Below the pieces are notes generated by a model. It had not been told where the DNA came from. It did not search any database and saw nothing but the letters and a program-made list of their open reading frames with translations. 64,000 nt of DNA from Candidatus Poriferisocius sp. (lineage in GTDB: Bacteria > Actinomycetota > Acidimicrobiia > Acidimicrobiales > Bin134). The DNA is taken from assembly GCF_965208475.1 (NCBI RefSeq), contig NZ_OZ242338.1, positions 2,834,782 to 2,898,781 of the forward strand, read 5' to 3'. The position numbers were made by a program, and so were the translations under genes. How positions within the stretch are numbered: the stretch's first letter is position 1; each line of letters opens with the position of its first letter. Below, one piece after another: positions 3,754 to 42,264 of this stretch.

Positions 3754-5412
3754 GTGGCCATTCACGATGCTCGACCGCCCCAACACCCGATGACCGAATC
3801 AGATTTCGACGTTGTCATCATTGGCGCCGGTGCCGCGGGGCTGTACGCCCTCCACCGGGTACGCGGACTCGGCCTGTCGGCCAAGGTCTTCGAGAAGGGG
3901 GACGGCGTCGGCGGTACCTGGTACTGGAACCGCTACCCCGGCGCCCGGTGCGACGTGGAGAGCTGGGATTACTGCTACACGTTCTCCGAGGAGCTAGAGC
4001 AGGAGTGGGAGTGGACCGAGCGGTTCCCCACCCAGCCGGAGTTGGAGCGCTACTTCAACCACGTCGCCGACCGCTTCGACCTGCGTCGAGACATCGAATT
4101 CGACACCCGGGTGGAGCAGGCCCGTTTCGACGACGAGCTGAGCTGCTGGATAGTCCGCACTTCTGAGGGCGAAACGGTTTCGGCTCGGTTCGTCATATCA
4201 GCCACCGGCTGCCTCTCGGAGGTGAACATGCCGCGATTCAAGGGGGCCGACACCTTCGAGGGCCAGCAGATCCACACCGCCCGTTGGCCGAAGGGCGGCA
4301 TGGACGTCACCGGCATGCGGGTCGGCGTGATCGGCACCGGGTCGACCGGCGTGCAGGCCATTCCGCAGCTGGCCAAGCAGGCCGAGCAGCTGTTCGTCTT
4401 CCAGCGCACTCCGCAGTTCGCCATCCCGGCCCGCAACCGGCCGCTCGACGACGACAAGCTTGAGGAGCTGAAGCACAACTACCGCGAGCGGTGGGCGCTC
4501 AAGCGCGCGAACCCTGTCGGGATGGGGCGTCACCCTCCCGAGGTATCGTCGGCCCTCGAAGTCGATGAGGCGACCCGAACCAGGGTGCTGGAGGACTCGT
4601 GGGCCCTCGGCGGGCCGGGCTTCGCCCGGACCTTCGACGACGTGATGACCAACGCCGAGTCGAACCAGCTCACGGCGCAGTTCGTTCGGGACAAGATCAA
4701 AGACAAGGTCGACAATCCCGACGTGGCCTACGCCCTCCTGGAGATCGACCACCCCCTGGGCGCCCGGCGGCTCATCGTAGAGATCGACTACTTCGAGACC
4801 TACAACCGGCTCAACGTGACGCTGGTGGACGTGGCCACCAACCCCATTACCGAAGTCACGCCCCAGGGTCTGCGAACCGCCGAGGGCTCCTACGACCTCG
4901 ACCTGATCGTGTATGCCACCGGATTCGACGGCATGACCGGCGCCCTGCTGGCCATGGACATCCAAGGGGTTGGAGGCCTGGCCCTTCGCGACAAATGGGC
5001 CAATGGGGCCGGCGCCTATCTCGGCCTGGTGGCGTCCGGATTCCCCAACCTGTTCATGATCACCGGCCCCGGCAGCCCGGCGGTTTTCAGCAACGTGATC
5101 TTCTCCATCGAACAGCACGTCGACTGGATCACCGGCTGCCTGGCCCACATGCTCGACCACGGTCTAGACCGCATCGACTCCGATCCCCGGGCCGAGGCCG
5201 AATGGACCCGGCAAGTCCAGGAGATCGCCGCCCAGAGCATCGTCGGCAAAACCGATTCGTGGTGGACCGGAGCCAACATCGCCGGCAAGCCGAAAGGCGT
5301 CACCTTCTACCTCGGCGGCACCCACACCTACGCCGCCGTCTGCGACCAGATCGCCGCCAAAGGCTACGAGGGTTTTACCTTCCGGGCGGCCAACAGACCC
5401 GCGCGCTCCTGA
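3754..5412 (+). CDS. Baeyer-Villiger (flavin-containing) monooxygenase
   Basis: FAD fold VVIIGAGAAGLY, GGTWYWNRYPGARCD and the BVMO fingerprint FEGQQIHTARWP. The start could instead be ATG 3790 (MTESDFDVV). Confidence 0.85.
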   Translation: MAIHDARPPQHPMTESDFDVVIIGAGAAGLYALHRVRGLGLSAKVFEKGDGVGGTWYWNRYPGARCDVESWDYCYTFSEELEQEWEWTERFPTQPELERYFNHVADRFDLRRDIEFDTRVEQARFDDELSCWIVRTSEGETVSARFVISATGCLSEVNMPRFKGADTFEGQQIHTARWPKGGMDVTGMRVGVIGTGSTGVQAIPQLAKQAEQLFVFQRTPQFAIPARNRPLDDDKLEELKHNYRERWALKRANPVGMGRHPPEVSSALEVDEATRTRVLEDSWALGGPGFARTFDDVMTNAESNQLTAQFVRDKIKDKVDNPDVAYALLEIDHPLGARRLIVEIDYFETYNRLNVTLVDVATNPITEVTPQGLRTAEGSYDLDLIVYATGFDGMTGALLAMDIQGVGGLALRDKWANGAGAYLGLVASGFPNLFMITGPGSPAVFSNVIFSIEQHVDWITGCLAHMLDHGLDRIDSDPRAEAEWTRQVQEIAAQSIVGKTDSWWTGANIAGKPKGVTFYLGGTHTYAAVCDQIAAKGYEGFTFRAANRPARS

Positions 5413-5455
5413 AGAACCTTCGGGCTAGTCAGCGTTCACCACCTGGTGAATAGGT

Positions 5456-5483
5456 GCATGAATCTTTCATGCTAGAATCATGC
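5456..5483 (+). promoter_or_regulatory. Candidate operator/promoter of vapBC: inverted repeat GCATGA-N5-TCATGC, a -10-like TAGAAT and a repeated TCATGC
   Basis: Read directly. TAGAAT at 5473-5478 ends 6 nt before ATG 5485, which suggests a leaderless transcript. Confidence 0.4.
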
Positions 5484-5484
5484 T

Positions 5485-5718
5485 ATGGCTAATCTTCAGG
5501 TTAGGAATGTGCCTGATGTCCTCCACGAGCGGTTGCGCCAGCACGCCCTGGAGAGGAATTGCACCATGAGCGCGGCGGTGCTCGACGCTATTGAGCGGGA
5601 GCTTGCCCGGTGGGAGTGGAGCAAGCATTTATCGACTCGGCCGACCACTGACCTCGGGATTGAGGTTGCCTCCCTAATCGCCGAAGTGCGGGCATCTCGC
5701 GATTCAGAGCTTGAATGA
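5485..5718 (+). CDS. vapB: Ribbon-helix-helix antitoxin (VapB/FitA-like)
   Basis: 77 aa. N-terminus MANLQVRNVPDVLHERLRQHA is typical of RHH antitoxins. 4-bp overlap with the downstream PIN gene. Confidence 0.7.
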   Translation: MANLQVRNVPDVLHERLRQHALERNCTMSAAVLDAIERELARWEWSKHLSTRPTTDLGIEVASLIAEVRASRDSELE

Positions 5719-6116
5719 CCGGCTACGTAGTCGACGCCTCAGTAGCGGTCGAATACCTATTGCGAACGCCGCTGGGGATCACGCTTGCTGACACCGTCGA
5801 AAAAGCATCATTGGCTGCCCCCGAGCTGCTCGACCCAGAAGTGATGTCGGCGCTGCGCCGCGCCGTTCTCACCGGACGACTTGAGGAAGCAAGGGCCGTG
5901 ATGGCTCTGAGCGATCTGGCCATCTGGCCTATCGATCGCATCTCCCATCGAGTGCTCGCCATGTCGGCCTGGCAGCACTACGCCAATGTCAGCGCCTACG
6001 ACGCCTTTTATATCGCAGCCGCCCGAGCCATGGGGGTACCGCTGTTGACCGCAGATGGCCGGCTAGCGAGATCAACCGGCCTCGACATCACTATCCACCA
6101 CATACGAATGAGCTGA
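5715..6116 (+). CDS. vapC: PIN-domain toxin VapC
   Basis: 133 aa. VVDASVAVEYL N-terminal acidic motif, YDAFYIAAA, and LLTADGRLA at the C-terminus. Confidence 0.8.
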   Translation: MTGYVVDASVAVEYLLRTPLGITLADTVEKASLAAPELLDPEVMSALRRAVLTGRLEEARAVMALSDLAIWPIDRISHRVLAMSAWQHYANVSAYDAFYIAAARAMGVPLLTADGRLARSTGLDITIHHIRMS

Positions 6117-6166
6117 GCCGCCGGATCAAAGGGAGCAACCATGGCGGTGATGCCACGATCGCGGGT

Positions 6167-6198
6167 GTATGCAAAAGTGTTAGCATACTTGCATGCAA
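6167..6198 (+). promoter_or_regulatory. Candidate mazEF operator: GTATGC-N10-GCATAC inverted repeat plus the 10-bp palindrome TTGCATGCAA spanning the antitoxin ATG
   Basis: Read directly. -10-like TAGCAT/CATACT at 6181-6189 lies just upstream of ATG 6193. Confidence 0.4.
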
Positions 6199-6387
6199 AG
6201 TACCAGTGTGCGCATCGATGTGGCGACCCATCAGGAGCTGAAGAAGCTTGCCGCATCCCTAGGCGCAACGGTGGGCGACACGGTTGCGCTGGCGGTGCGA
6301 CGACTACGGCAAGACGAGATCGGAGCTGAGCTGGCGGATCAACTCACTGACGAAGAAACGGGTTGGCTCGATGCTGACCTCGGGTGA
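6193..6387 (+). CDS. Antitoxin (MazE/RHH-like) paired with a MazF-family toxin
   Basis: 64 aa with an acidic C-terminus. Overlaps the downstream toxin start by 17 nt. Confidence 0.6.
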   Translation: MQSTSVRIDVATHQELKKLAASLGATVGDTVALAVRRLRQDEIGAELADQLTDEETGWLDADLG

Positions 6388-6715
6388 CGTTGTCGAACTG
6401 GATCTCGGATTTCCCTTTGGCCGCGAGGCGGGGTTTCGCCACCCCGCAGTCGTAGTGACAGCCCAAAGAGTGCTCGACGCCAGGCCCAGCGTGGTTCAAG
6501 TGGTGCCACTGACTTCGCAACTTCGAGGATTTGCCTCGGAGGTGGAGCTAGAGGCCGATCCGCAGAACGGGTTGGATCGCGCCTCGGCCGCCCAGTGCCA
6601 GCACGTCCGCGCCGTCGCGGCAAGCCGAATCGAGGGCGCAAGGGGCAACATCGGAGGGACAGCGCTCACCCAAATCCGCGAAGTCCTGGGACTGATCCTC
6701 GATGTCCCGGGTTGA
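6371..6715 (+). CDS. mazF: MazF/PemK-family endoribonuclease toxin
   Basis: Internal ATG 6371 of ORF 6284..6715. GDVVELDLGFPFGREAGFRHPAVVV and VVPLTSQ are typical of the PemK/MazF fold. Confidence 0.8.
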   Translation: MLTSGDVVELDLGFPFGREAGFRHPAVVVTAQRVLDARPSVVQVVPLTSQLRGFASEVELEADPQNGLDRASAAQCQHVRAVAASRIEGARGNIGGTALTQIREVLGLILDVPG

Positions 6716-6836
6716 TTGGGCGATCACGTAGCGACCATTGATGGCCTCTGGCAGCCTCCCAGAAATTGTCTGAGAAATGACGCATTCGTTCCCCGCTGAC
6801 GAGCGTCGGCCACATCCAATGGCCACCGCATCGCTA

Positions 6837-6980: not shown

Positions 6981-7430
6981 GTGACCGATGACCGCCAGTT
7001 CATGGATCTGGCCTTGGCCGAGGCCCGGCGGGCGTTGGAGCGCGGTGAGGTGCCCATCGGCGCGGTGGTGGCCATCGACGGCGCGGTGGTGGCCGCTCGC
7101 CACAACGAGCGGGAATCCACCAACGATCCCACCGCCCACGCTGAGATTCTGGCCCTGCGGGACGCGGCGGCAACTCGGGGCTCATCCCGGCTCGACGGGG
7201 CGGCGCTGGTGACCACGCTGGAACCGTGCCCGATGTGCGCGGGCGCCGCAGTGATGGCCCGGGTGGCCCGGGTGGTGTTCGCCGCTGAAGACCCCAAGGC
7301 CGGGGCGTGCGGCACGCTCTACAACCTCGGCGCCGACCCACGTCTCAACCACAGCTTCGAGGTGGTGGCCGGGGTGGGGCGTGACGAGTCCGCCACCCTG
7401 CTCAGAGACTTCTTCGCCGCCCGCCGCTGA
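6981..7430 (+). CDS. tadA: tRNA-specific adenosine deaminase TadA
   Basis: Deaminase zinc motifs HAEILALR and PCPMCAGA. 149 aa. Sits next to tRNA-Ser, as is common in actinobacteria. Confidence 0.9.
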   Translation: MTDDRQFMDLALAEARRALERGEVPIGAVVAIDGAVVAARHNERESTNDPTAHAEILALRDAAATRGSSRLDGAALVTTLEPCPMCAGAAVMARVARVVFAAEDPKAGACGTLYNLGADPRLNHSFEVVAGVGRDESATLLRDFFAARR

Positions 7431-7502: not shown

Positions 7503-7727
7503 GTGAACCGGATCACAGTGAATCCCAATCAGATGGGCGGAGTTCCCTGCATTCGAGGCCTCCGCATTCCGGTCGCGACCGTCGTCAACATGATCGCTGA
7601 CGGCCTAACCCCCAGCGATATCATTGCCGAACTCCCGCCACTTGAACTCGAAGACGTGAGCGCGGCACTGAGGTTTGCTGCCGACACCGTCTCTGATCGC
7701 GAAATTCCCCTGCAAACCACCGCGTGA
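7503..7727 (+). CDS. DUF433-domain protein (putative antitoxin partner)
   Basis: 74 aa. GGVPCIRGLRIPVATVVNMIADGLTPSDII matches the DUF433 pattern. 4-bp overlap with the next gene. Confidence 0.65.
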   Translation: MNRITVNPNQMGGVPCIRGLRIPVATVVNMIADGLTPSDIIAELPPLELEDVSAALRFAADTVSDREIPLQTTA

Positions 7728-8737: not shown

Positions 8738-10612
8738 ATGGGCGGCGCCCACGGCGCCATCGGCCACGATCCCTCCGGGGTCAAAGGCAAGCAGATAGCC
8801 GGGCAGACGATTCGCCGGGTGGCCGGTTTTGCGCGGCCCTATCGGAACATGCTCATCGGGTTCGTTGTGGTGCTGTTGTTGGGGGCGCTGCTGTCGCTGG
8901 TGCCGCCACTTTTGTTCCGCCAGATCATCGACGACGCAATCGCCAATAGCGACCGGGGCCAGGTGAACCTGCTGGCCGCCATCATCGTGTTGGCCGCATT
9001 CGGGGAAGCGGCCCTCGCTTTCATCGAGCGCTATTGGTCGTCTCGCATCGGCGAGGGGCTGATCTACGACCTGCGGGTGGGGCTCTACGACCACGTGCAG
9101 CGCATGCCGATGGCGTTCTTCACCCGGGTGCAGACGGGCTCGCTCATCAGCCGGATGAACAACGACGTGATCGGCGCCCAGCGGGCGTTCACCGGCACGC
9201 TGGGGTCGGTGGTGTCCAACACCATCGTGCTGGCCACCACACTGGTGGCCATGTTCTTGCTGGAGTGGCGGCTCACGCTGATGGCTCTGGCCCTGCTGCC
9301 GGTGTTCATCCTGCCCACCAAGCGGGTGGGCCGGAGGCTTCAGGCCCTCACCCGGGAGTCCATGGAGCACAACGCCTCTATGAACACGGTGATGACCGAG
9401 CGGCTGAACGTGTCGGGGGCGATGCTGGTGAAGCTGTTCGGGCGCCACAACCAGGAGCGAGACGGGTTCGGGGCCACTGCCGGGCGAGTGCGAGACATCG
9501 GTGTGCGCAGCGCCATGTATGGGCGGGCGTTCTTCATTGCGCTGAGCCTGGTGGGGGCGGTGGGGGCCGCGGTCCTTTACTGGGTGGGAGGCCACCTGGT
9601 GATCTCTGGGACGATCACGGTGGGGACGCTGGCGGCCATGGGGCTGATGGTGGTGCGGATCTACATGCCGCTCACCAGCCTGACCAACGCCCGGGTGGAC
9701 GTGATGACCGCACTGGTTTCGTTCGAGCGGGTGTTCGAGGTGCTGGACACGCCCAACCCCATCGCCGACCGGCCCGATGCCCCGAAGCTGCAAAATCCCA
9801 AGGGGCGGATCGAGCTCGCCGACGTGACCTTCACCTATCCGCCCAGTGACGACCGGTTGGCCTCGCTGCAAGCCAACGCCGCCGCGCCGGAGGCCACCGG
9901 CAGCCCGGTGCTGCGCAACGTGTCGGCGGAGATCGAGCCGGGCCAATTGGTGGCGCTGGTGGGGCCGTCGGGAGCGGGCAAGACCACTCTGGTGGCGCTG
10001 TTGAACCGGCTCTACGACGTGGACAGCGGGGCAGTGCTGATCGACGGCACCGACGTGCGGGACGTCACCCAGGAGTCGCTGCGGGCCTCGGTGGGAGTGG
10101 TGCCCCAAGACCCGCACCTGTTCCATGAGACGGTGGCCGACAACCTTCTCTATGTCCGGCCCGGCGCGACCCAAGCCGAGATGGAGGCCGCCTGCCGTTC
10201 GGCCCACATCCACGACCTGATCGCCTCGCTGCCCGAGGGCTACAACACCTTGGTGGGCGAGCGGGGCTACCGATTGTCGGGGGGCGAGAAGCAACGGGTG
10301 GCCATCGCCCGGGTGCTGCTCAAAGACCCGGCCATCGTGGTGCTGGACGAGGCCACCAGCCACCTCGACAGCGAGAACGAGGCGCTGGTGCAGCAGGCGC
10401 TGGGCATCGCGCTCCAGGGAAGGACCGCAGTGGTGATCGCCCACCGGCTCTCTACCGTGACCAATGCGGATCAGATCCTGGTGCTCAACCAGGGGGAGCT
10501 GGTGGAGTCGGGCCGCCATGGCGATCTGCTGGCCGCCGGGGGGCTGTACGCCGAGCTCTACCGCACGCTGGTGCGAAACGAACGGCAGTCGCCGGCGAAG
10601 AGCGCGCTGTGA
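8738..10612 (+). CDS. ABC exporter, fused permease/ATPase (MdlB/MsbA type)
   Basis: Six-TM N-terminal half. Walker A GPSGAGKTT, signature LSGGEKQRVAIARVL, Walker B VVLDEATS. ATG 8738 chosen over 8669 because of the divergent copC. Confidence 0.85.
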   Translation: MGGAHGAIGHDPSGVKGKQIAGQTIRRVAGFARPYRNMLIGFVVVLLLGALLSLVPPLLFRQIIDDAIANSDRGQVNLLAAIIVLAAFGEAALAFIERYWSSRIGEGLIYDLRVGLYDHVQRMPMAFFTRVQTGSLISRMNNDVIGAQRAFTGTLGSVVSNTIVLATTLVAMFLLEWRLTLMALALLPVFILPTKRVGRRLQALTRESMEHNASMNTVMTERLNVSGAMLVKLFGRHNQERDGFGATAGRVRDIGVRSAMYGRAFFIALSLVGAVGAAVLYWVGGHLVISGTITVGTLAAMGLMVVRIYMPLTSLTNARVDVMTALVSFERVFEVLDTPNPIADRPDAPKLQNPKGRIELADVTFTYPPSDDRLASLQANAAAPEATGSPVLRNVSAEIEPGQLVALVGPSGAGKTTLVALLNRLYDVDSGAVLIDGTDVRDVTQESLRASVGVVPQDPHLFHETVADNLLYVRPGATQAEMEAACRSAHIHDLIASLPEGYNTLVGERGYRLSGGEKQRVAIARVLLKDPAIVVLDEATSHLDSENEALVQQALGIALQGRTAVVIAHRLSTVTNADQILVLNQGELVESGRHGDLLAAGGLYAELYRTLVRNERQSPAKSAL

Positions 10613-21104: not shown

Positions 21105-21149
21105 GCCTCAACTTCGGTCAGTTCCCTTGCGGCCCGCAGCATGACATAT

Positions 21150-21168
21150 TGATATATTCTTCATATCA
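21150..21168. promoter_or_regulatory. Inverted repeat TGATAT-N7-ATATCA in a very AT-rich stretch upstream of fic
   Basis: Read directly. Positions 21141-21190 contain 11 G+C out of 50 nt. Confidence 0.4.
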
Positions 21169-21189
21169 TAGTTTGATATCTTTATAGTC

Positions 21190-22374
21190 ATGCCATCGAG
21201 TATCTTTGCCACACCCGAACCGGAAGATACCGACCTGCTGGTAATCGATGAGATCGAGCGCTTGCGGCACGAGCTCTCCCAATACGTTCGGCACAAGCCC
21301 CGAAGGTGGGCAGGCCATCTAAGGAGAATGAGCCTGGCCCGGGCAGTCAGAGGCTCTAACTGGATCGAGGGTTACCGAGCGTCATTGGATGACGTGCTGG
21401 ATGCCATCGAAGGAGAAGAACCGCTGGACACCTCCGAGGAAACCAGGCTGGCATTGACCGGCTACCGGGACGCCATGACCTACGTGCTCCAGCTTGCCGA
21501 AGCCGAGACCATCGTCGATCAATCCCTCTTGAAGTCGCTCCACTTCATGATGACCAAGCATGATCTGCGCGCCCGGCCCGGCCTATACAGAAAAGGAGAT
21601 GTCTGGGTGTCCGACGAAAATGGGACCCGCGTCTACGACGCGCCCGACGCAGCCCTGGTCGAACCACTCATAGGCGAGCTTGTCGAATCCCTCCAAGGGG
21701 ACGGGCCTGTGCCTGTCATATTCCGGGCCGCGATGGCTCATCTCAACCTGGTGATGATCCACCCCTTCCGCGACGGGAACGGACGCATGGCTAGAGCCCT
21801 GCAAACAATGGTGCTCTCAGGCGAGGGCATCGTCTCCCCTGTCTTCTCGTCAGTGGAGGAATATCTGGGGCGAAACACCGACGACTACTACGCGATTCTC
21901 TCCGAAGTCGGCCAGGGAAGTTGGCACCCGGAGAACTCGGCCCGGCCGTGGATTCGATTCATGCTCAGAGCCCACTATCGACAGGCGTGGACAATGCAGA
22001 GGCGGATTCATGAAACCGAGCACCTGTACGACAGCATCACCCAACTCGTCCACCGCAACAGCCTTCCGAATCGGGTCACCGGCGCACTGGCCGATGCAGC
22101 CCGAGGCCGCCGATTGCGCCGGTCGATCTACACGCACCTCGTGGAGCTGACCGAAGGCGACGCGATCTCCGACCTCTCCGCCAGCCGAGACTTGAAGGCC
22201 ATGGTCGACGCCGGAGTCCTCGAACCAAAGGGAGCGGGACGGGGGCGCATCTACCACGGCTCCGATGAGCTACGCAGCCTATGGCTCGACGTCCGAGCCA
22301 ACCGGCCGGCAAGAGCCGACGATGATCCCTACGTCACACTCCCCCAGCGGCCCTTGCCAGGAATCTCGGGCTGA
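21190..22374 (+). CDS. Fic-family protein (class II, N-terminal auto-inhibitory helix) with a winged-helix-like C-terminus
   Basis: Fic motif HPFRDGNGRMAR. Inhibitory motif SNWIEG, which fits (S/T)xxxE(G/N). Confidence 0.85.
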   Translation: MPSSIFATPEPEDTDLLVIDEIERLRHELSQYVRHKPRRWAGHLRRMSLARAVRGSNWIEGYRASLDDVLDAIEGEEPLDTSEETRLALTGYRDAMTYVLQLAEAETIVDQSLLKSLHFMMTKHDLRARPGLYRKGDVWVSDENGTRVYDAPDAALVEPLIGELVESLQGDGPVPVIFRAAMAHLNLVMIHPFRDGNGRMARALQTMVLSGEGIVSPVFSSVEEYLGRNTDDYYAILSEVGQGSWHPENSARPWIRFMLRAHYRQAWTMQRRIHETEHLYDSITQLVHRNSLPNRVTGALADAARGRRLRRSIYTHLVELTEGDAISDLSASRDLKAMVDAGVLEPKGAGRGRIYHGSDELRSLWLDVRANRPARADDDPYVTLPQRPLPGISG

Positions 22375-31759: not shown

Positions 31760-32713
31760 TCACGCCGGGTTTGGTAGAGACTGTTTTTGTTGGGTCACGG
31801 CCGGGGTGGCTGTGGTGTTGTTATGGTAGGCGGTTTCGTGGTCGGCGGGGGTGGTGTAGGTGTATCGGCCTTTGAGGAGTTGGCTGTGGCTGCGTCGGTT
31901 GTTGTACCAGTCGATGTATTCGAGGGTGGCGAACTCGACGTCGCTTTGTCCCTGCCAGGGGCCGTGCGGGTAGATGAGTTCCCATTTGAACAGGCCGTTG
32001 AAGCTCTCGATCATGGCGTTGTCGTAGCTGTCGCCTTTGCTGCCGACCGAGGCGACGATGTCGTTGTCGTCGAGGCGCTGGCTGTAGCGGATCGACACAT
32101 ATTGCGATCCGCGGTCGCTGTGGTGGACGGCTTTGTCGATGCTGTGGCCGCAGCGCCGGCGGGCGGCGATGGCCATGTCCAAAGCGTCGAGCGCCAACTC
32201 GGTGCGCAAAGAGCGCGACGCCTGCCAGCCCAGGACCCGGCGGGAGTAGGCGTCGACGACGAACGCCATGTAGACCCAGCCGGAGCGGGTCCGCACCCAG
32301 GTGAGGTCAGCGAGCCACAGCCGATCCGGGGCGTCGGCGCCGAAGTCCCTGTTCACGATGTCCTCGGGCATCTCGCCGGCGGCGGGCGTGGTGGTGCGGG
32401 GCTTTTTGCCCCGGCGGGCGCCCGCCAGGCCCATCTGGCCCATCAGCCGCTCGACGGTGCAGCGGGCCACCCGCACGCCCTCGACGCGGTTTAGGTGGTC
32501 CCACACCTTGGCCGCGCCGTAGGCGCCGTAGTTCGCCTTGTGCGCCCTAGCGATCACCGGGCGCAGCCGGGCGTCGCGCAAAGCACGCTCCGACGGGGCC
32601 CGCTTTTTGGCCGCCCAGTAGGTGGACGGGGCGATCCCGACGCCGTGCTCTGTGAGCACCGCGCAGATCGGCTCGACCCCGAACCGGTGCCGGTAGGCGT
32701 CGATGAACGCCAC
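31760..32713 (-). CDS. IS3 transposase OrfB (DDE integrase core)
   Basis: FGVEPICAVL, WLADLTWV, HHSDRGSQYVS and YDNAMIESFNG are DDE/rve motifs. It is in the -1 frame relative to orfA and overlaps its stop. Confidence 0.85.
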   Translation of the reverse strand: MAFIDAYRHRFGVEPICAVLTEHGVGIAPSTYWAAKKRAPSERALRDARLRPVIARAHKANYGAYGAAKVWDHLNRVEGVRVARCTVERLMGQMGLAGARRGKKPRTTTPAAGEMPEDIVNRDFGADAPDRLWLADLTWVRTRSGWVYMAFVVDAYSRRVLGWQASRSLRTELALDALDMAIAARRRCGHSIDKAVHHSDRGSQYVSIRYSQRLDDNDIVASVGSKGDSYDNAMIESFNGLFKWELIYPHGPWQGQSDVEFATLEYIDWYNNRRSHSQLLKGRYTYTTPADHETAYHNNTTATPAVTQQKQSLPNPA

Positions 32714-33351: not shown

Positions 33352-34641
33352 CTAACTCGAAGCCAAGCCGGCCAGGCATTGGTCTCGGCGGAAGGCGGTC
33401 ATAGATATAAGGCTTTGCACGACAGGCAGCGCCCTTAGTTCGGGAGAGAGTTCGTCGGCCGCCTGCTGCATGGCTTCGGGGGCGGCCTTGGCGATGGCGG
33501 TGGCCCGGTCGACTCCTTCGGATTCGGGCAGCCCTATTGCACTAGCCGCCATTTCCCATGCTTGTTTGCTCTCGGCGGTGAGGATCCGACGGTCGGGCAG
33601 GACCGACATTGCCAGCGAGTAGGAGCGGTAGTGGTGAGGGTCGTAGGGCATCATCGACCAGATGTCATAGAGCGGAGCAAGGCGGGCCCTTCCGGCGGCG
33701 AGCAGCAGGCTGTAGTTCTTGGAGTGGCCATCGGTGTTGCAAATGACCCAGTTGAACACCTGGGCGTCGAAGAAGACCCGTAGGTCGGTGTCGCGGTCGA
33801 CGGAGTGGTCGGCAATGAGGCGGGCGAGGCGACGCAGGCTGTGGCCCTCTCCTCTTTCGTTCTGATAGATGGGAACGTCGGGCTCGCCACATGCCTGATG
33901 CAGATCCTCCTGGTGTATGCGTCGAATGGAACCATCCACATCAAGGCGGTCAAAACGGCGGACAACCAGCACCGGATGGCCAGCAACAACTTCAACCTCA
34001 GTCCGAACTGCGGGAAGACCGCAGTGTCTAGCCACCGTCAAACAGAGGTGCTCGTTGACCGATTGATCGTCCAAGTCCCTCATCGACGGTTTGAGGATGT
34101 GGGTAGTCGGCACGCTTCCCATTGCCTCACCCCATCTTCCCCCTTCCCGATGCAACGCAGTCTTGGCTTGGGCGCCTCCGAGGCTGAAGGCGCTGCGCCC
34201 GGTGGGACGCACCCATTGGGCAGACTCCCTCACCATCCCCAAGACGAGCTCCTCGAAGCTGGTGTCATCCAGCCACTCAACACTGCCGTTGCGCTCTTCG
34301 AGGGCATCGAAGTTCTCTGGCCGACAGAATCGGACCGCGCCGGGACAATCCAAACCGATGCGAGTGCTCAGCAGGTCGAACGGGGAGGCTGACATCGCCT
34401 GGTACTTCGCTGCCCAGCGTTCTCGGACATCTGGGTTACCGGGCAACAATCCCGACATCCATCCCTCCACCCGTTGGTCCTCGATCTCACCCTCTTCCAG
34501 CGGAAGAGAGAGCGAAAGGGGCGAAACATCGCGGCGGGAGGAATAGTCGCCGTCATAGGAGAGGCACAGCATCGGCCCTCGCCGATCAATGCGGCCGACA
34601 AAATCGTCACCGATGAAGACGAGCAGTGAATCCTCCGGCAT
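33352..34641 (-). CDS. hipA: HipA-family serine/threonine kinase toxin
   Basis: 429 aa. HipA N-domain, SLGGAQAKTAL, and the catalytic-loop-like NTDGHSKNYSLL. Confidence 0.85.
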   Translation of the reverse strand: MPEDSLLVFIGDDFVGRIDRRGPMLCLSYDGDYSSRRDVSPLSLSLPLEEGEIEDQRVEGWMSGLLPGNPDVRERWAAKYQAMSASPFDLLSTRIGLDCPGAVRFCRPENFDALEERNGSVEWLDDTSFEELVLGMVRESAQWVRPTGRSAFSLGGAQAKTALHREGGRWGEAMGSVPTTHILKPSMRDLDDQSVNEHLCLTVARHCGLPAVRTEVEVVAGHPVLVVRRFDRLDVDGSIRRIHQEDLHQACGEPDVPIYQNERGEGHSLRRLARLIADHSVDRDTDLRVFFDAQVFNWVICNTDGHSKNYSLLLAAGRARLAPLYDIWSMMPYDPHHYRSYSLAMSVLPDRRILTAESKQAWEMAASAIGLPESEGVDRATAIAKAAPEAMQQAADELSPELRALPVVQSLISMTAFRRDQCLAGLASS

Positions 34642-37505: not shown

Positions 37506-39818
37506 TCAGGCGGGGACGGGCACAACCTCCACCTTGATCCCGTTCACGATGGCATTGCCGGAGATCTCGTCCACCAGCTCGCCCGGGGCCAAAAGGTTGT
37601 TGTTGACCCCGGCGAACTCCTTGGCCACCGAGAGCTGCACCCCGTCGAGGTTGTGGCCCCAGCCGTGGGGCAGCGACACCACGCCGGGCATCATCTCGTC
37701 GCTCACCTCAACGGGCACCTCGATGCTGCCGACCTCGGTGCTCACCCGGGCCACCGATCCTTCGGCCAGGCCGATCCCCGCCGCGTCGTCGGGATGCACA
37801 ATTAGCGTGCAGCGGTCCTTGCCCTTCACCAGCACCTTCACGTTGTGCATCCAGGAGTTGTTAGACCGCACATGGCGGCGGCTCACCAGCACCATTCCGT
37901 CGTCGCGCCCCAAGCGGCGCTGGAGCCGGTCCACATCGGCGGTGATGTAGGGCGGGGCCATCTCGATGCGGCCCGACGGGGTGTGGAGGATCTCCGGTAT
38001 CCGGGGCACCATCGGGCCGAAATCGAGGCCGTGGGGGTTGTTTTTGAAGTCCTGCAAGGTGAGTCCGTCGGGATTCTCGCCGTAGCGGTCGCCCCGATGG
38101 CCCACCCGGATCATGAAGTCGGTCATCCGCTCGGGGCCACCGGCGTCGTAGTGCGACAGCACATGGCCAGGATCGAGGCCGAAGAACGTGCAGAGCCCGG
38201 AGAAGAACCCGTCGTCGATGGCGCGCTCGTCGATCTCGCCGTTGGATTGGCCGCCCATCAGCGCGCCCACCCGCACGAGCACCTCCCACTCGTCTGGGCG
38301 GTCGCCGAACTCGAAGATCCGGTCCGACCAGTTGCCCGCGGTGCGGGCGGCCCATGACCAGATCATCTCGTCCCAGTGGGGCTGCTCCAGAGGCGACAGC
38401 CCGGGCAGGATCACATCGGCGTGGCGGGTAGTGGCGTTGACCCAGTTGTCGATGCAGATCATGGCATCCAGCATGGGAAGCACCTCATCGAGGCGACCTG
38501 CCTCGGGCGAGCTGATAACCGGGTTGCCGGCCACCACCACCAGGGCCTTTATCTGGCCCTCGCCGGGGGTCATGATCTCCTCCGACAAACACGACACCGG
38601 CACCTGGCCCAGCACCTCGGGGGCGCCCCGCACCCGGCTGTGCCAGCGGCCGAACTCGGGCTCTTTGGGTGCCTCGAAGTTGAGGGTGGCCATGGCCGGA
38701 GCCACCGGGGTGGCGAACATCATCCCGCCGGGCACGTCGAAGTTGGCGGTGAGCAGGTTCACCACGTCGATGAGCCACGAGGCCAGCGTGCCGAACTCCT
38801 GGTTGCACAGCCCGATGCGGCCGTACACGCTGGCGCTGTCGGCCGCGGCGATCTCCCGAGCCAGCCGGCGGATTTTTTCGGCCGGAATCTGGGTGGTCTC
38901 AACCACCATCTCGGGGGTCCAGTCGGCCACCAGGGCCCGCACCTCGTCGAGGCCGTTCACGTGGCCGGCCATGGTGCCCAGATCCACCAGATCCTCGTCG
39001 AACAGCACATGGCACAGGGCCAACAAGAAGGCGGCATCGGTTCCGGGAGTGATGGGCACCCACTCATCGGCGTGGTCGAAGGTGCCGGTGCGGCGGGGGT
39101 CGATCACCACGCACTTGCCGCCCCGCTCGCGGATCTTGTCCATCTCGCCCAGCACGTCGGGGCAGGCCAACAGGCTGCCCTGGGAGGCGTGGGGGTTGGC
39201 ACCCATCACCACCAGGTACTGGGTGCGCATGATGTCGGGGGTGGGGAACGTCCAAGAGTTGCCGTACATGCACACCGACGACACGTTCTTGGGCCACTGG
39301 TCGACGGTGCCCGCCGAGTACCCCATCTGCACGCCCGACAGCATCACCAGCGCGCCCACGTAGCGGCTGATGGAGAAGTTGTGGGCCGCAGGATTGCCGA
39401 TGTAGTAGGTCATGGCCTCGACGCCGTAGGTGTCGCGCACGCCGTGGAGCAGCTCCTCGCAGCGGGCATAGGCCTCTTCCCAGGTGGCCTCCTGGAAGGT
39501 GCCGCTGGAGTCTTTGACCAGCGGCACCCGCACCCGGTCGGGATCGGTGTGCAAATGCCCCAGAGTGGTGCCCTTGGGGCAGATGAAGCCCTTGCTCCAC
39601 ACGTCGTCGCGGTCGGGCCGGATGGGGGGCAACACCTTGGTGCCCTCGGTTTTGATCACCATCCCGCACATGGCCTCACACAGCGGACAGGTCCTCAAAT
39701 GGGTCTTAACCTGGCTGCCATTGCCAGACGGTTCGGGGGCTGGGGTTTCGGCGCTCACGCCGGGGATTTTACTCACATGGGGCGAAAGCGGCTTCTGTCC
39801 GACGAACATGGCCGACAA
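37506..39818 (-). CDS. Molybdopterin-dependent oxidoreductase (formate dehydrogenase-like MopB family)
   Basis: N-terminal Fe-S motif CPLCEAMCGM...CPKG. 770 aa with molybdopterin-binding and C-terminal beta-barrel segments. Confidence 0.85.
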   Translation of the reverse strand: MSAMFVGQKPLSPHVSKIPGVSAETPAPEPSGNGSQVKTHLRTCPLCEAMCGMVIKTEGTKVLPPIRPDRDDVWSKGFICPKGTTLGHLHTDPDRVRVPLVKDSSGTFQEATWEEAYARCEELLHGVRDTYGVEAMTYYIGNPAAHNFSISRYVGALVMLSGVQMGYSAGTVDQWPKNVSSVCMYGNSWTFPTPDIMRTQYLVVMGANPHASQGSLLACPDVLGEMDKIRERGGKCVVIDPRRTGTFDHADEWVPITPGTDAAFLLALCHVLFDEDLVDLGTMAGHVNGLDEVRALVADWTPEMVVETTQIPAEKIRRLAREIAAADSASVYGRIGLCNQEFGTLASWLIDVVNLLTANFDVPGGMMFATPVAPAMATLNFEAPKEPEFGRWHSRVRGAPEVLGQVPVSCLSEEIMTPGEGQIKALVVVAGNPVISSPEAGRLDEVLPMLDAMICIDNWVNATTRHADVILPGLSPLEQPHWDEMIWSWAARTAGNWSDRIFEFGDRPDEWEVLVRVGALMGGQSNGEIDERAIDDGFFSGLCTFFGLDPGHVLSHYDAGGPERMTDFMIRVGHRGDRYGENPDGLTLQDFKNNPHGLDFGPMVPRIPEILHTPSGRIEMAPPYITADVDRLQRRLGRDDGMVLVSRRHVRSNNSWMHNVKVLVKGKDRCTLIVHPDDAAGIGLAEGSVARVSTEVGSIEVPVEVSDEMMPGVVSLPHGWGHNLDGVQLSVAKEFAGVNNNLLAPGELVDEISGNAIVNGIKVEVVPVPA

Positions 39819-39833
39819 ACAACATGGTTGGAG

Positions 39834-39870
39834 TACTAACCCATACTAATTCATGTCACATTAGTAGCAA
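39834..39870. repeat. 37-bp direct repeat, left copy (TACTAACCCATACTAATTCATGTCACATTAGTAGCAA)
   Basis: Read directly. Matches the right copy at 32 of 37 positions. Contains TACTAAT-N9-ATTAGTA. Confidence 0.85.
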
Positions 39871-39899
39871 TCACCCTGGATCTGCCATAGAGTTGCACT

Positions 39900-41300
39900 G
39901 TGGCAAAGGTGCTCACACCCCCAACTTGGACTGATCTGGCCTCAAAAGTCCCACCAGAAAATCATCACCGCGTGATTGAAGTGCTGACGTCAGGAAGGCC
40001 AATTGATCCCAAGGGCCGATACCTTCATTGGGACGAGATGCGGCACCGGACCCCTCCCGACGGCCTCACTCTAGACGAGTGGTGGATGGGCACTGCCTAC
40101 AGCCGGTTCGCAGTTGCCCGCCCGCTACCTCTAACCAGTGTGACAGGAGAGCCGTTCCGGATCTCCAACATCGACCCAATACAGGAAGCGGTTCACCGCA
40201 TCGACCAGTACGCCAGCGGGCAGATCCAGGCCGATGGCGCCATCGCCAACGTGCAGTCCAGCGACCGCTACCTGGTTTCTTCGCTCATGGAAGAGGCAAT
40301 CACCTCCAGCCTCTTGGAGGGCGCCGCCACCACTCGGCGAGCCGCCAAAGAAATGCTGCGAACGAAGCGGTCACCCAAGACCCACGGCGAGCGCATGGTG
40401 TTCAATAACTTCAACGCGATGATCGCCGCCGAGCAGTTGGCCCGAGAGGGCCGCCCGCTGACGCCGGGGGATGTATTGGAACTGCACCGCATCGTCACCG
40501 ACGGCACGTTGGACGACGAGTCGGAATCCGGGCGCATCCAGCAGCCCGGCGAAGAGCGGGTTGTTGTGGTTGACAGCGATGACACAGTGATTCATCGACC
40601 GCCGCCGGCCGAGGAACTCCCAGGACGGCTAGAACAACTCTGCGAGTTCGCCAATGGTGAGAACGTCGAAGGTTTCCTACACCCAGTGGTCCGAGCCATT
40701 GTCCTCCATTTCTGGGTGGGGTACGACCATCCCTTTGTGGACGGCAACGGGCGTACCGCCCGGGCGCTGTTCTACTGGTCGATACTGAGATCCGGGTACT
40801 GGCTGGCCCAGTACATCTCCATCTCTGCCATCCTGCGCAACGCTCCTGGGCAATACAAGAAGTCATACCTGAAGGCTGAGACTGACAGCAACGATGCCAC
40901 TTACTTCGTGATCTACCAGCTTCAGGTCATGGAGCAGGCAATCGACAGCCTTCGGGACTACCTGGCCCGAAAGACCTCAGAGATCAATAACGTCAAACAG
41001 CGCTTGCGCAGTGTCTCCAGGCTCAACAACCGCCAACTCGCCATCATCAACGACGCCTTGCACGACCCCTCCCAGGTCTTCACCATCCAAGGCCAGGCAC
41101 AACTGCACCGCGTGGTATACCAGTCGGCTCGTACCGATTTGCTCGCCCTAGAAGCCATGGGGCTTTTCGCCAAAGCCAAGTTGGGCAATCAGTTCGAGTT
41201 CTATGCGGTCGGCGACATCCAAGATCGGCTACATCACCTGGTTGAGGCTGAGAAGCAACAAATCGCGCACGAGGTTGAGGCTGCGGTACGACGAAGCTGA
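39900..41300 (+). CDS. Fic-family protein (class II) with extended N-terminal and C-terminal domains
   Basis: Fic motif HPFVDGNGRTAR. Inhibitory motif SSLLEG. GTG start. Confidence 0.85.
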   Translation: MAKVLTPPTWTDLASKVPPENHHRVIEVLTSGRPIDPKGRYLHWDEMRHRTPPDGLTLDEWWMGTAYSRFAVARPLPLTSVTGEPFRISNIDPIQEAVHRIDQYASGQIQADGAIANVQSSDRYLVSSLMEEAITSSLLEGAATTRRAAKEMLRTKRSPKTHGERMVFNNFNAMIAAEQLAREGRPLTPGDVLELHRIVTDGTLDDESESGRIQQPGEERVVVVDSDDTVIHRPPPAEELPGRLEQLCEFANGENVEGFLHPVVRAIVLHFWVGYDHPFVDGNGRTARALFYWSILRSGYWLAQYISISAILRNAPGQYKKSYLKAETDSNDATYFVIYQLQVMEQAIDSLRDYLARKTSEINNVKQRLRSVSRLNNRQLAIINDALHDPSQVFTIQGQAQLHRVVYQSARTDLLALEAMGLFAKAKLGNQFEFYAVGDIQDRLHHLVEAEKQQIAHEVEAAVRRS

Positions 41301-41330
41301 CCGCATAGCCGCTGGATATAGAACGCGAAC

Positions 41331-41367
41331 TACTAATCGATACTAATTGATATCAAATTAGTAGCAA
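41331..41367. repeat. 37-bp direct repeat, right copy (TACTAATCGATACTAATTGATATCAAATTAGTAGCAA)
   Basis: Read directly. Lies between two convergent 3' ends. Contains TACTAAT-N9-ATTAGTA with the central palindrome TTGATATCAA. Confidence 0.85.
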
Positions 41368-41385
41368 CTGTCCGTCCTTCCCTGG

Positions 41386-42264
41386 TCAGCGGAGTTGGTC
41401 TACGTAGGTGTCGGTGCCGGGGATGGTGGGGATGAAGGGGGCGGACAGGGCCAGGCTGGCCTTGGGGTGGGCGGCGAGGGCGGCGTGGTGGCTGGCGAGG
41501 GCGTCAGGGAAAACGTCGGAGGGGTCTTGGTCCAAGAACCACAGCAGACACAGGCGCTGGCCCACCTTGGCGGTGGGGGCCACCGGCGGGGTGCCGGGCT
41601 GTTCGATGCGGCCCTGGGCGAACTCGCGGGGGGCGAAGGCCAGACACATCACCGCGGGCGAGCCCGGCAGCACAGAGGGCAGGTGGTCGTCGACCAGCCA
41701 ATCCTCGATGGCCTGCTGATCGTCGGGGGCGGCGGCGGCGATCACCTCCACCACCAACCCCGCGAAGGGGTGGTCGAGGGCCAAGTGGGGCTTCATGGGG
41801 CCGCTTCCGGGGCGGACCACCCCAAAGCGGTACTGGTGGAAGGCGGTGTACACATGGGTGCGCTGGGTGAATCCCCGTCCGTGGGGCATGAGGGCCTCGG
41901 CCATGGCCAAAAAGCTCCACCGCTCGGTGTCGTCCTCGTGGCCCGGTGTGCTCCAGTACAGCGAGATGTAGCAGCCGGCGTCGGGAGGGTGAAACGCCGG
42001 CTCGTCCACCTCCGGGCGCAGGTCGCGCAGCGCTTTGGGGGCCACCCAGCGGCGTCCGGCGAACACCCACGGACCGTGCATGGCCCCGGAGTAGAAATGG
42101 TCGTCCTCGTACCAGCGGTTGTACGCGTTCTCGTAGCCCTCGTGGGGCTCCACCATGGTGATGAGCGCGCCCCCTATGCCGTTGTCGTTGGGCAGGTGCC
42201 GCGCCAGCCGCTCATACACCGACCGGTCGGCCGGGGTCCGATCGGGCTCGCTGAGGGTGGACAT
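41386..42264 (-). CDS. Conserved hypothetical protein
   Basis: 292-aa ORF 32 nt downstream of the CoA-transferase gene, with coding-like composition. No motif recognised. Confidence 0.45.
   Translation of the reverse strand: MSTLSEPDRTPADRSVYERLARHLPNDNGIGGALITMVEPHEGYENAYNRWYEDDHFYSGAMHGPWVFAGRRWVAPKALRDLRPEVDEPAFHPPDAGCYISLYWSTPGHEDDTERWSFLAMAEALMPHGRGFTQRTHVYTAFHQYRFGVVRPGSGPMKPHLALDHPFAGLVVEVIAAAAPDDQQAIEDWLVDDHLPSVLPGSPAVMCLAFAPREFAQGRIEQPGTPPVAPTAKVGQRLCLLWFLDQDPSDVFPDALASHHAALAAHPKASLALSAPFIPTIPGTDTYVDQLR

Follow-up and report, generated by a model that had tools for sequence, protein, structure and literature searches.

Organization of the fic locus

This report concerns a fic gene and the two repeats flanking it in a 64,000-nt stretch of the genome of Candidatus Poriferisocius sp. 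(contig NZ_OZ242338.1), hereafter the window. The left repeat is situated between fic and a divergent gene for a molybdopterin (Mo-)oxidoreductase, and the right one lies 30 nt past the fic stop codon and 18 nt ahead of the stop codon of a convergent open reading frame (ORF) of 292 amino acids (aa). The initial annotation had described these elements as 37-bp imperfect direct repeats in which 32 of 37 positions agree, and both were recovered in direct orientation at exactly those positions (Table 1). Its other observations were also reproduced, namely the palindrome TACTAAT-N9-ATTAGTA in both AT-rich copies, the count of 10 G+C in the 30 nt at 39841-39870, and the enclosure of fic as the sole plausible gene between the copies. 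We further agree that the right copy is unfit as a promoter operator, its location between two convergent 3' ends excluding a classical operator.

Table 1. Features of the fic locus, with positions in the window
Feature	Position	Strand	Remarks
Mo-oxidoreductase gene, left neighbour, divergent from fic	37506-39818	-	
Left repeat, putative composite operator	39834-39870	+	TACTAACCCATACTAATTCATGTCACATTAGTAGCAA
Left repeat, half-site TACTAA	39834-39839	+	
Left repeat, half-site TACTAA(T)	39844-39850	+	
Left repeat, half-site (A)TTAGTA	39860-39866	+	GCAA follows
-10-like hexamer TAGAGT	39887-39892	+	ends 7 nt ahead of GTG start
fic gene, 466 aa, GTG start	39900-41300	+	Pfam Fic at residues 186-293
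Winged helix-turn-helix coding region (residues 377-436)	41028-41207	+	predicted secondary structure
Recognition helix (residues ~405-419), VVYQSARTDLLALEA	41112-41156	+	invariant in close homologues
Right repeat, putative composite operator	41331-41367	+	TACTAATCGATACTAATTGATATCAAATTAGTAGCAA
292-aa ORF, right neighbour, convergent with fic	41386-42264	-	conserved in Acidimicrobiales; without Pfam family
Segment X, CAGCGGAGTTGGTCTAC	41387-41403	+	3' end of 292-aa ORF

Allowing up to two mismatches, TACTAAT-N9-ATTAGTA was found at two sites only in the window, both at the repeats, and no match was obtained in 100 dinucleotide-preserving shuffles; a degenerate 37-mer gave the same outcome. Each repeat is more complex than a simple 7-9-7 palindrome. 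The full pattern is TACTAA-N4-TACTAAT-N9-ATTAGTA, which contains three half-sites of the TACTAA type (TACTAA-N4-TACTAA-N11-TTAGTA), two of them direct and 10 bp apart and the third inverted. All three half-sites recur in the right copy, oriented as in the left one. The G+C content of fic is 53-64%, as against 65-72% in the flanks.

The Fic protein

The product of the gene matches the Pfam family Fic with E = 9.6e-18. Its catalytic motif, H277-PFVDGNGR-285, conforms to HPFx[D/E]GN[G/K]R and is invariant in 42 homologues, as is the class II inhibitory motif S136-S-L-L-E140-G141 ([S/T]xxxE[G/N]), which was placed in helix 123-139/146-155 of the model. The AlphaFold model, computed as a monomer (predicted local distance difference test, pLDDT, 80), has, at the C-terminus, a winged helix-turn-helix (wHTH) at residues 377-436 with the order H-β-H-H-β-β. 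The best Foldseek matches were M. marinum FIC (7cb8), CbFic2 (8cil), SoFic (3zcn/3eqx; template modelling (TM) score 0.71 on target) and 7xux, which, judged by release date and title, is presumably CccR. The matches to 3zcn/3eqx, 8cil and 7xux extended over 356-385 columns and took in both the Fic and the wHTH parts; by sequence, the Fic core alone was detectable in PDB. The window protein is a class II Fic-wHTH enzyme of the CccR/SoFic kind. Because no second ORF for a separate antitoxin was found between the repeats, and because the class II motif makes inhibition intramolecular, the gene does not form a two-gene type II toxin-antitoxin operon.

Distribution of the site in the Fic-wHTH family

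Using the protein alone, 30 loci (numbered, like all others here, with the prefix L) were retrieved, mostly from sponge-associated and other metagenome-assembled genomes of Acidimicrobiales, Tepidiformaceae, Gemmatimonadota, Latescibacterota and others. In most of them TACTAA-N11-TTAGTA was present directly upstream of fic with invariant spacing. It was placed 27-140 bp upstream of homologues from several phyla (Acidimicrobiia, Gemmatimonadota, Latescibacterota), and at -55 to -58 relative to the fic start in L001-L008. The converse search, with the motif only and without reference to fic, gave at least 120 metagenome contigs. Among the matches listed, 34 of 120 contigs carried a fic homologue (31-60% identical), and the site was upstream in the same orientation in 33 of these 34. 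In the remaining contig, L092, the exact match was a downstream site and a site with one mismatch was located upstream.

Two architectures were observed. The usual one consists of two or three tandem upstream sites, 42-80 bp apart, and none downstream. The alternative, with one site upstream and one just past the stop codon, occurs in the window, L001-L004, L007/L008, L011, L019, L092 and L136, and in Tepidiformaceae with a changed half-site. All site pairs in the family are in direct orientation. Neither in the protein-found loci nor on the metagenome contigs without fic was any other gene found to be consistently linked to the sites. Contigs with a site but without fic do exist; many are AT-rich, and in some the gene side is cut short.

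On fic-less contigs L056, L058, L070, L085, L114, L124, L133, L147 and others the element reads aacTACTAA-N4-TACTAA-N4-TACTAA-a-TTAGTAg. It is made up of three direct half-sites and one inverted half-site, the same type flanks fic in L011, and no neighbour gene recurs beside it. Contigs L069, with fic, and L070, with the distal site only, have common flanking sequence. One Ca. Poriferisocius genome contains a duplication (L005:5727-6281 and L030:5727-6281, 98% identity) of the fic promoter, the operator with its four half-sites and the first ~93 codons; at the second locus the gene is truncated.

Searches of phage and plasmid collections gave homologues of 29-38% identity only. No TACTAA site was seen in the inspected Klebsiella and Vibrio plasmid copies, each of which has a hairpin at its end, in Vibrio with a T-tract. 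The homologue on a Klebsiella IncFIB plasmid (L160, ~38% identical) has a palindrome, AACTCAATTTT-N4-AAAATTGAGTT, directly before its ATG (2370-2410) and an ordinary hairpin terminator past the stop codon (L160:3790-3830). It offers a cultivable system in which to test for Fic-wHTH autoregulation.

Co-variation of the recognition helix and conservation of the half-sites

The protein-found loci, the window and the syntenic locus L155 were compared for helix and site. Counted over this set, whose members are phylogenetically non-independent, a recognition helix with YQ[S/T]AR was accompanied by TACTAA sites in 20 of 20 loci and an altered helix in none of seven, other palindromes being found at the same place. 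In Tepidiformaceae (L009, L010 and L026) the helix has IQS, not YQS, and the site is GCTGCTAA-N11-TTAGCAGC, present in two upstream copies and a single downstream one, and the two arms of the palindrome have changed together. This natural specificity swap is open to experiment. Degenerate, drifted sites accompany the helix HQSS in L155, and further altered helices are those of L015 (QAT), L023 (YDT), L028 (IPT), L012 and L025 (YAT) and L021 (HET). Residues Y407, Q408 and S409 co-vary with the operator sequence across the family. Since the site tracks the helix and no other gene is consistently linked to it, the binding protein is most simply Fic itself. The Tepidiformaceae sites are preceded by CAACTGCAA (L009:5850-5960 and 7365-7400).

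Conservation was assessed by pairwise identity in five syntenic genomes. For the left copy, identity was 0.98 in the half-sites, 0.59 in the spacers and 0.48-0.49 in the adjacent 30 nt; for the right copy the values were 1.00, 0.82 and 0.49-0.55, respectively. Such figures indicate that both copies are under selection, and the contrast between the right copy and its adjacent DNA argues that it is not a decaying scar.

Promoter region

In the window, L001-L006 and L155 the start codon is preceded, at a distance of 6-7 nt, by the end of a TANNNT hexamer, and from this distance the fic mRNA is probably leaderless. The inverted repeat TACTAAT-N9-ATTAGTA lies 34-56 nt upstream of the fic start, a position proper to an inverted-repeat operator. 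Given the inferred position of the -10 element, the promoter-proximal half-site together with GCAA would cover the -35, so that the left copy is placed over a putative -35 region, a promoter assignment made by comparative position only. On the 3' side, the right copy was considered as an intrinsic terminator and rejected, no terminator-like site with a GC-rich hairpin and U-tract being found at 41331-41367.

A proposed model of autoregulation

Based on the family-wide association, the co-variation with the helix, the fold, the precedent of CccR and SoFic, the conservation of the half-sites, their occurrence in pairs and the solo site at the fic-less locus L158, both repeats are likely to be operators to which the winged helix of Fic itself is predicted to bind. 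The C-terminal wHTH would bind both flanking repeats, and Fic on the left copy, over the -35, would repress its own synthesis in a self-limiting manner, keeping a potentially toxic AMP-transferase low. As paired sites are the rule in the family and the second site is 1.5 kb away, a cooperative loop is proposed; the right site would probably be bound cooperatively with the left, forming a ~1.5-kb loop around fic. The right copy may also, or alternatively, serve as a roadblock between the two convergent genes. Recombination between the direct-repeat operators would delete fic exactly and leave one site, an outcome which is probably a by-product of the arrangement and not the function of the sites. 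The suggestion of the initial annotation that the repeats could be a protein-binding element is favoured over chance.

Several points weigh against this model. A strict sigma-70 scan of 39600-41600 found no promoter. The relatedness of the loci reduces the force of the co-variation counts, and drift of both sites and of the helix in L155 shows that maintenance of the arrangement is not universal. The contigs with a site and no fic indicate that Fic may act in trans on other targets or that the site may have a further role. The computations made favour neither loop nor roadblock nor any other role of the right site. Finally, what has been observed is the architecture of the repeats, the conservation across the family, the co-variation of helix and site, the predicted fold, the orthologous locus with a solo site and no fic, and the decoupled genealogy, while binding, repression, looping and the mechanism of deletion are inferred.

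What is new is a widely conserved operator, candidate specificity residues, the paired-site rule and a second site behind the gene; the mechanism would be, by analogy, the already known autoregulation of the CccR/SoFic kind. TACTAA-N11-TTAGTA would be the second operator of such enzymes and much more broadly conserved than that of CccR, the only one mapped. Together with Y407/Q408/S409 it provides a testable protein-DNA recognition code for the Fic-wHTH family, of which InterPro holds 1807 proteins (bioRxiv 10.64898/2026.07.09.737422). The paired sites, one of them behind the gene in several lineages, suggest that a potentially toxic enzyme is controlled cooperatively or through a loop, a mode undescribed for Fic proteins.

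Comparison with known systems

The class II Fic toxin CccR of Yersinia pseudotuberculosis attaches as a dimer, by way of its C-terminal HTH, to an inverted repeat in its own promoter, near the -35 and -10 boxes, and represses its own gene (PMC9755527). The window protein resembles CccR in being a class II Fic enzyme on one polypeptide, with the inhibitory helix at the N-terminus and the DNA-binding domain at the C-terminus, in the match of its model to 7xux, and in having an inverted repeat on the inferred -35. It differs in an extra N-terminal region of ~120 aa, in the lack of a type VI secretion system context and in sequence (17-19% identity in the structural alignment). The operators also differ, that of CccR being AGATAATCAT-N26-ATGATAATCT and that of the window TACTAA-N11-TTAGTA with a third half-site one helical turn off. 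Two or more operators, one of them downstream in this lineage, are found in the window family and are not described for CccR.

For SoFic (Shewanella oneidensis SO_4266), the stretch bound is the first 100 bp upstream of the gene that encodes it (bioRxiv 10.64898/2026.07.09.737422). Like CccR, it binds its own promoter as a dimer. In CbFic2 of Coxiella burnetii, a secreted effector with histone H3 as its reported target, DNA binding leads to dimerisation and a switch from AMPylase to deAMPylase; no defined DNA sequence was used for binding (PMC10628234). These two proteins (3eqx/3zcn and 8cil) are the best structural matches to the window Fic (TM 0.62-0.72 on target), but for neither have a defined operator, paired or gene-flanking sites, or specificity residues been described.

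Repressors with one operator at the promoter and another at a distance of hundreds to thousands of bp are familiar from lac (O1-O2), gal (OE-OI) and lambda CI (OL-OR). In these systems repression is tightened by cooperative binding with formation of a DNA loop, and in lambda the two operators bracket the repressor gene. Looping at the fic locus, by contrast, is proposed from the paired-site rule, and the second site is in a convergent 3' intergenic region.

The locus also has features reminiscent of integron cassettes and pdif modules, with one promoter-proximal gene between short imperfect repeats containing inverted repeats and with a single site left at an orthologous locus that lacks the gene. 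However, integron attC sites are 57-141 bp long, of the form R''/L''-L'/R' with the core GTTRRRY, whereas the window repeats are 37 nt long, have TACTAA half-sites and lack GTTRRRY. No intI integrase, attI or cassette array was found beside fic, its neighbours being the Mo-oxidoreductase gene, APH, the 292-aa ORF and the CoA-transferase gene, and the only mobile-element gene among the neighbours is the rve transposase at 31760-32713. Xer dif/pdif sites are 28 bp long, have a 6-bp centre between the XerC and XerD arms of 11 bp each, and are inverted around a module, while the window sites have a 7-9-7 layout plus a half-site and are direct. Unlike attC and pdif, they are tied to the DNA-binding helix of the cargo protein and to its promoter. 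A dif-like reading of the spacer TGATGTCAAAT was dropped, the 11-6-11 layout being absent.

Inheritance, exchange and loss of fic

The gene order APH, Mo-oxidoreductase, fic, 292-aa ORF and CoA-transferase is common to the window, L001-L004 and L155, which argues that fic is inherited at this locus. Universal presence of fic at this locus with diverged flanks had been named in the initial annotation as evidence against its reading, and fic together with both sites is indeed inherited there in at least six related genomes, which speaks against insertion scars or dedicated recombination sites.

A relative with a single repeat and no fic at the orthologous locus, as the initial annotation had envisaged, was nevertheless found. 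In L158 (Mo-oxidoreductase 85% identical) the locus comprises CoA-transferase, 292-aa-ORF homologue, Mo-oxidoreductase and APH genes, and fic is absent. The homologue of the 292-aa ORF is followed by 18 nt, a solo site (TACTAATTTGACATGAATTAGTATGAGTTAGTA), 85 nt and the Mo-oxidoreductase gene; the solo site occupies precisely the place taken up in the window by the right site, fic and the left site. The solo site is identical to the reverse complement of the window left copy at 31 of 33 positions, and the surrounding intergenic DNA is unalignable. On the oxidoreductase side a short spacer is retained, the one that is also found with the cassette in L155 and with the translocated paralogue L006. 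Given the solo site and this spacer, L158 is best read as a former carrier which would have lost fic by recombination between the two sites. Further loci were reached by way of homologues of the 292-aa ORF. L157 has no fic and no intact site; at the site position (L157:5815-5900) there are two copies of AGCCGTCGTAACTGTAA and a remnant ATTAATTAGTGG, and the 292-aa-ORF homologue is shortened to 189 aa. L152 lacks fic, the Mo-oxidoreductase gene and the site, and is uninformative on the insertion of a single gene, while L154 and one JGI locus, obtained from homologues of the 292-aa ORF, are non-syntenic.

Synonymous divergence between the syntenic genomes was 0.8-1.5 in fic versus 0.2-0.5 in the flanking genes. 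For the window and L001 the values were roughly concordant (0.30 in fic, 0.18-0.44 in the flanks), and for L002 and L003 the relation was reversed (0.09 in fic, 0.3-0.4 in the flanks). The window fic is a mosaic, its first ~280 nt being nearest to the L002 allele and the remainder nearest to that of L001. Lower codon bias somewhat inflates the synonymous divergence of fic, but it explains neither the reversal nor the mosaic. Judged from these alleles, the history of fic is decoupled from that of its neighbours. Since divergence is elevated only as far as the conserved flanking genes, nothing beyond ordinary homologous recombination within the flanks is needed for an exchange of alleles.

L006 is a fic paralogue at another locus of the genome that contains L003, copied as a unit with the left repeat as its left edge. 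Homology begins ~6 nt before the left site, and a copy of the 3' end of the 292-aa ORF is present on both sides, the junction being in that segment and outside the sites. Such flanks are the signature of copying from what would be a circular or tandem intermediate. The last ~17-25 nt of the 292-aa ORF (CAACGGAGTTGGTCGAC / CCAGCGGAGTTGGTGGTCG) are also present a second time just outside the left operator in L155 (9395-9430, minus strand) and L006 (5893-5925), and in the window in decayed form (39800-39816, 12 of 17 positions). The fic unit is thus bracketed as well by a duplication of its right-hand target, and segment X may be linked to movement of the cassette.

The flanking direct repeats represent a substrate for clean gene loss, documented once, in L158. 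Together with the mosaic alleles this provides a simple route by which single toxin or defence genes could be gained, exchanged and lost in the genomes of sponge symbionts without a mobility gene.

Alternative explanations

The repeats could be att-like sites of a mobile single-gene cassette, from which a host recombinase excises a fic circle with one site and inserts it at solo sites elsewhere, much as happens with integron cassettes or Xer-dependent modules. Such a reading gains from the orthologous locus L158 with a single site and no fic, the uniformly direct orientation of the flanking pairs, the solo sites on fic-less contigs (including L069/L070, with the same flanks and fic in one only), the decoupled divergence and mosaic alleles of fic, and the apparently circularly permuted paralogue L006. 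We nevertheless regard it as unlikely. Tandem placement of both sites upstream, the arrangement in most of the family, makes bracketing of a cassette impossible, and the site tracks the recognition helix of Fic and sits on its promoter. There is no recombinase nearby, the closest mobile-element gene being an insertion sequence (IS) transposase 7 kb off, and neither an attC core nor the 11-6-11 layout of dif is present. The L006 junction is in segment X, outside the sites; the conserved flanking genes permit ordinary homologous allelic replacement; and L152, without fic and the Mo-oxidoreductase gene, is also without a site. The cassette idea of the initial annotation is supported in part, by the fic-less L158 locus, the decoupled history and the edge of the L006 unit; dedicated recombination sites are not supported. 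Its insertion scars or recombination sites turned out to be a family-wide upstream element, mostly in tandem upstream, that co-varies with the helix and has no adjoining recombinase. In a variant which we consider quite unlikely, fic and its sites would be a self-contained mobile module, the sites acting beyond the control of transcription. Fic bound to both would synapse them to give a fic circle with one site, which could re-insert at the scattered solo sites, and the sites might also be a 'DNA antidote' holding Fic as a dimeric, non-toxic deAMPylase, as proposed for CbFic2 and CccR (PMC10628234). If true, the toxin would carry its own landing pad and safety catch.

It is very unlikely that the left copy alone is functional and the right one a neutral relic, left for instance by tandem duplication of operator and fic with loss of the second gene. 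Direct orientation and 86% identity would suit a duplication, and the downstream site is absent in the close homologue L005 and decayed in L006. Yet the right half-sites are 100% and the spacer 82% identical in the five genomes, as against ~50% in adjacent non-coding DNA, which exceeds the left copy, and several separate lineages have a downstream site as well (L007/L008, L011, L019, L136 and, with its half-site changed, Tepidiformaceae). Sites without an adjoining fic, in L158 and on many metagenome contigs, would be expected if they served as operators for another regulator of the host, whose wider regulon includes fic as one target. This is highly improbable given that fic is the only gene with a consistent link to the sites, that they accompany fic into unrelated contexts and phyla and change with its helix, and that the window contains just two copies. 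It is barely credible that the right copy acts as RNA, a 3' hairpin terminating or stabilising the fic transcript. The palindrome is able to form an 8-bp AU-rich stem, but the fold is no better than that of shuffled sequence (z = -0.81), no U-tract is next to it, the conserved third, direct half-site would be useless in a hairpin, and the conservation of spacer and half-sites suits a protein site.

Neighbouring genes and other observations

Homologues of the Mo-oxidoreductase were called at 735-748 aa, and from alignment with L158 the true start of the window gene is probably near 39759. A CoA-transferase gene is located beyond the 292-aa ORF, and an APH gene is also among the neighbours. An IS-type transposase gene (rve, HTH_21; 31760-32713, minus strand) and hipA (33352-34641, minus strand) are found 5-8 kb to the left of fic, and in the relatives L155 and L158 hipBA is at variable positions, adjoining APH and SnoaL. 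L155 has an insertion, a Schlafen/AlbA_2-HATPase_c_4 gene of 556 aa (5148-6818), that separates the CoA-transferase gene from the 292-aa ORF. In L001 a 68-bp direct repeat of the 3' end of the 292-aa ORF (7514-7581 and 9882-9949, 97% identical) brackets a 2.37-kb insertion beside the right fic operator; this insertion has low G+C at third codon positions and four or five ORFs, and no recombinase was recognisable in it with Pfam. With the Schlafen/AlbA_2 gene, fic, hipBA and the L001 insertion, the locus stands out as a variable hot spot where genes of the defence or toxin type occur.

The window's other fic gene (21190-22374, 394 aa, Pfam Fic) has AT-rich repeats directly before its ATG (21140-21189). 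They consist of TGATAT-N8-ATATCA followed by TGATAT, with no TACTAA sites there, which suggests a second, independent Fic autoregulatory operator.

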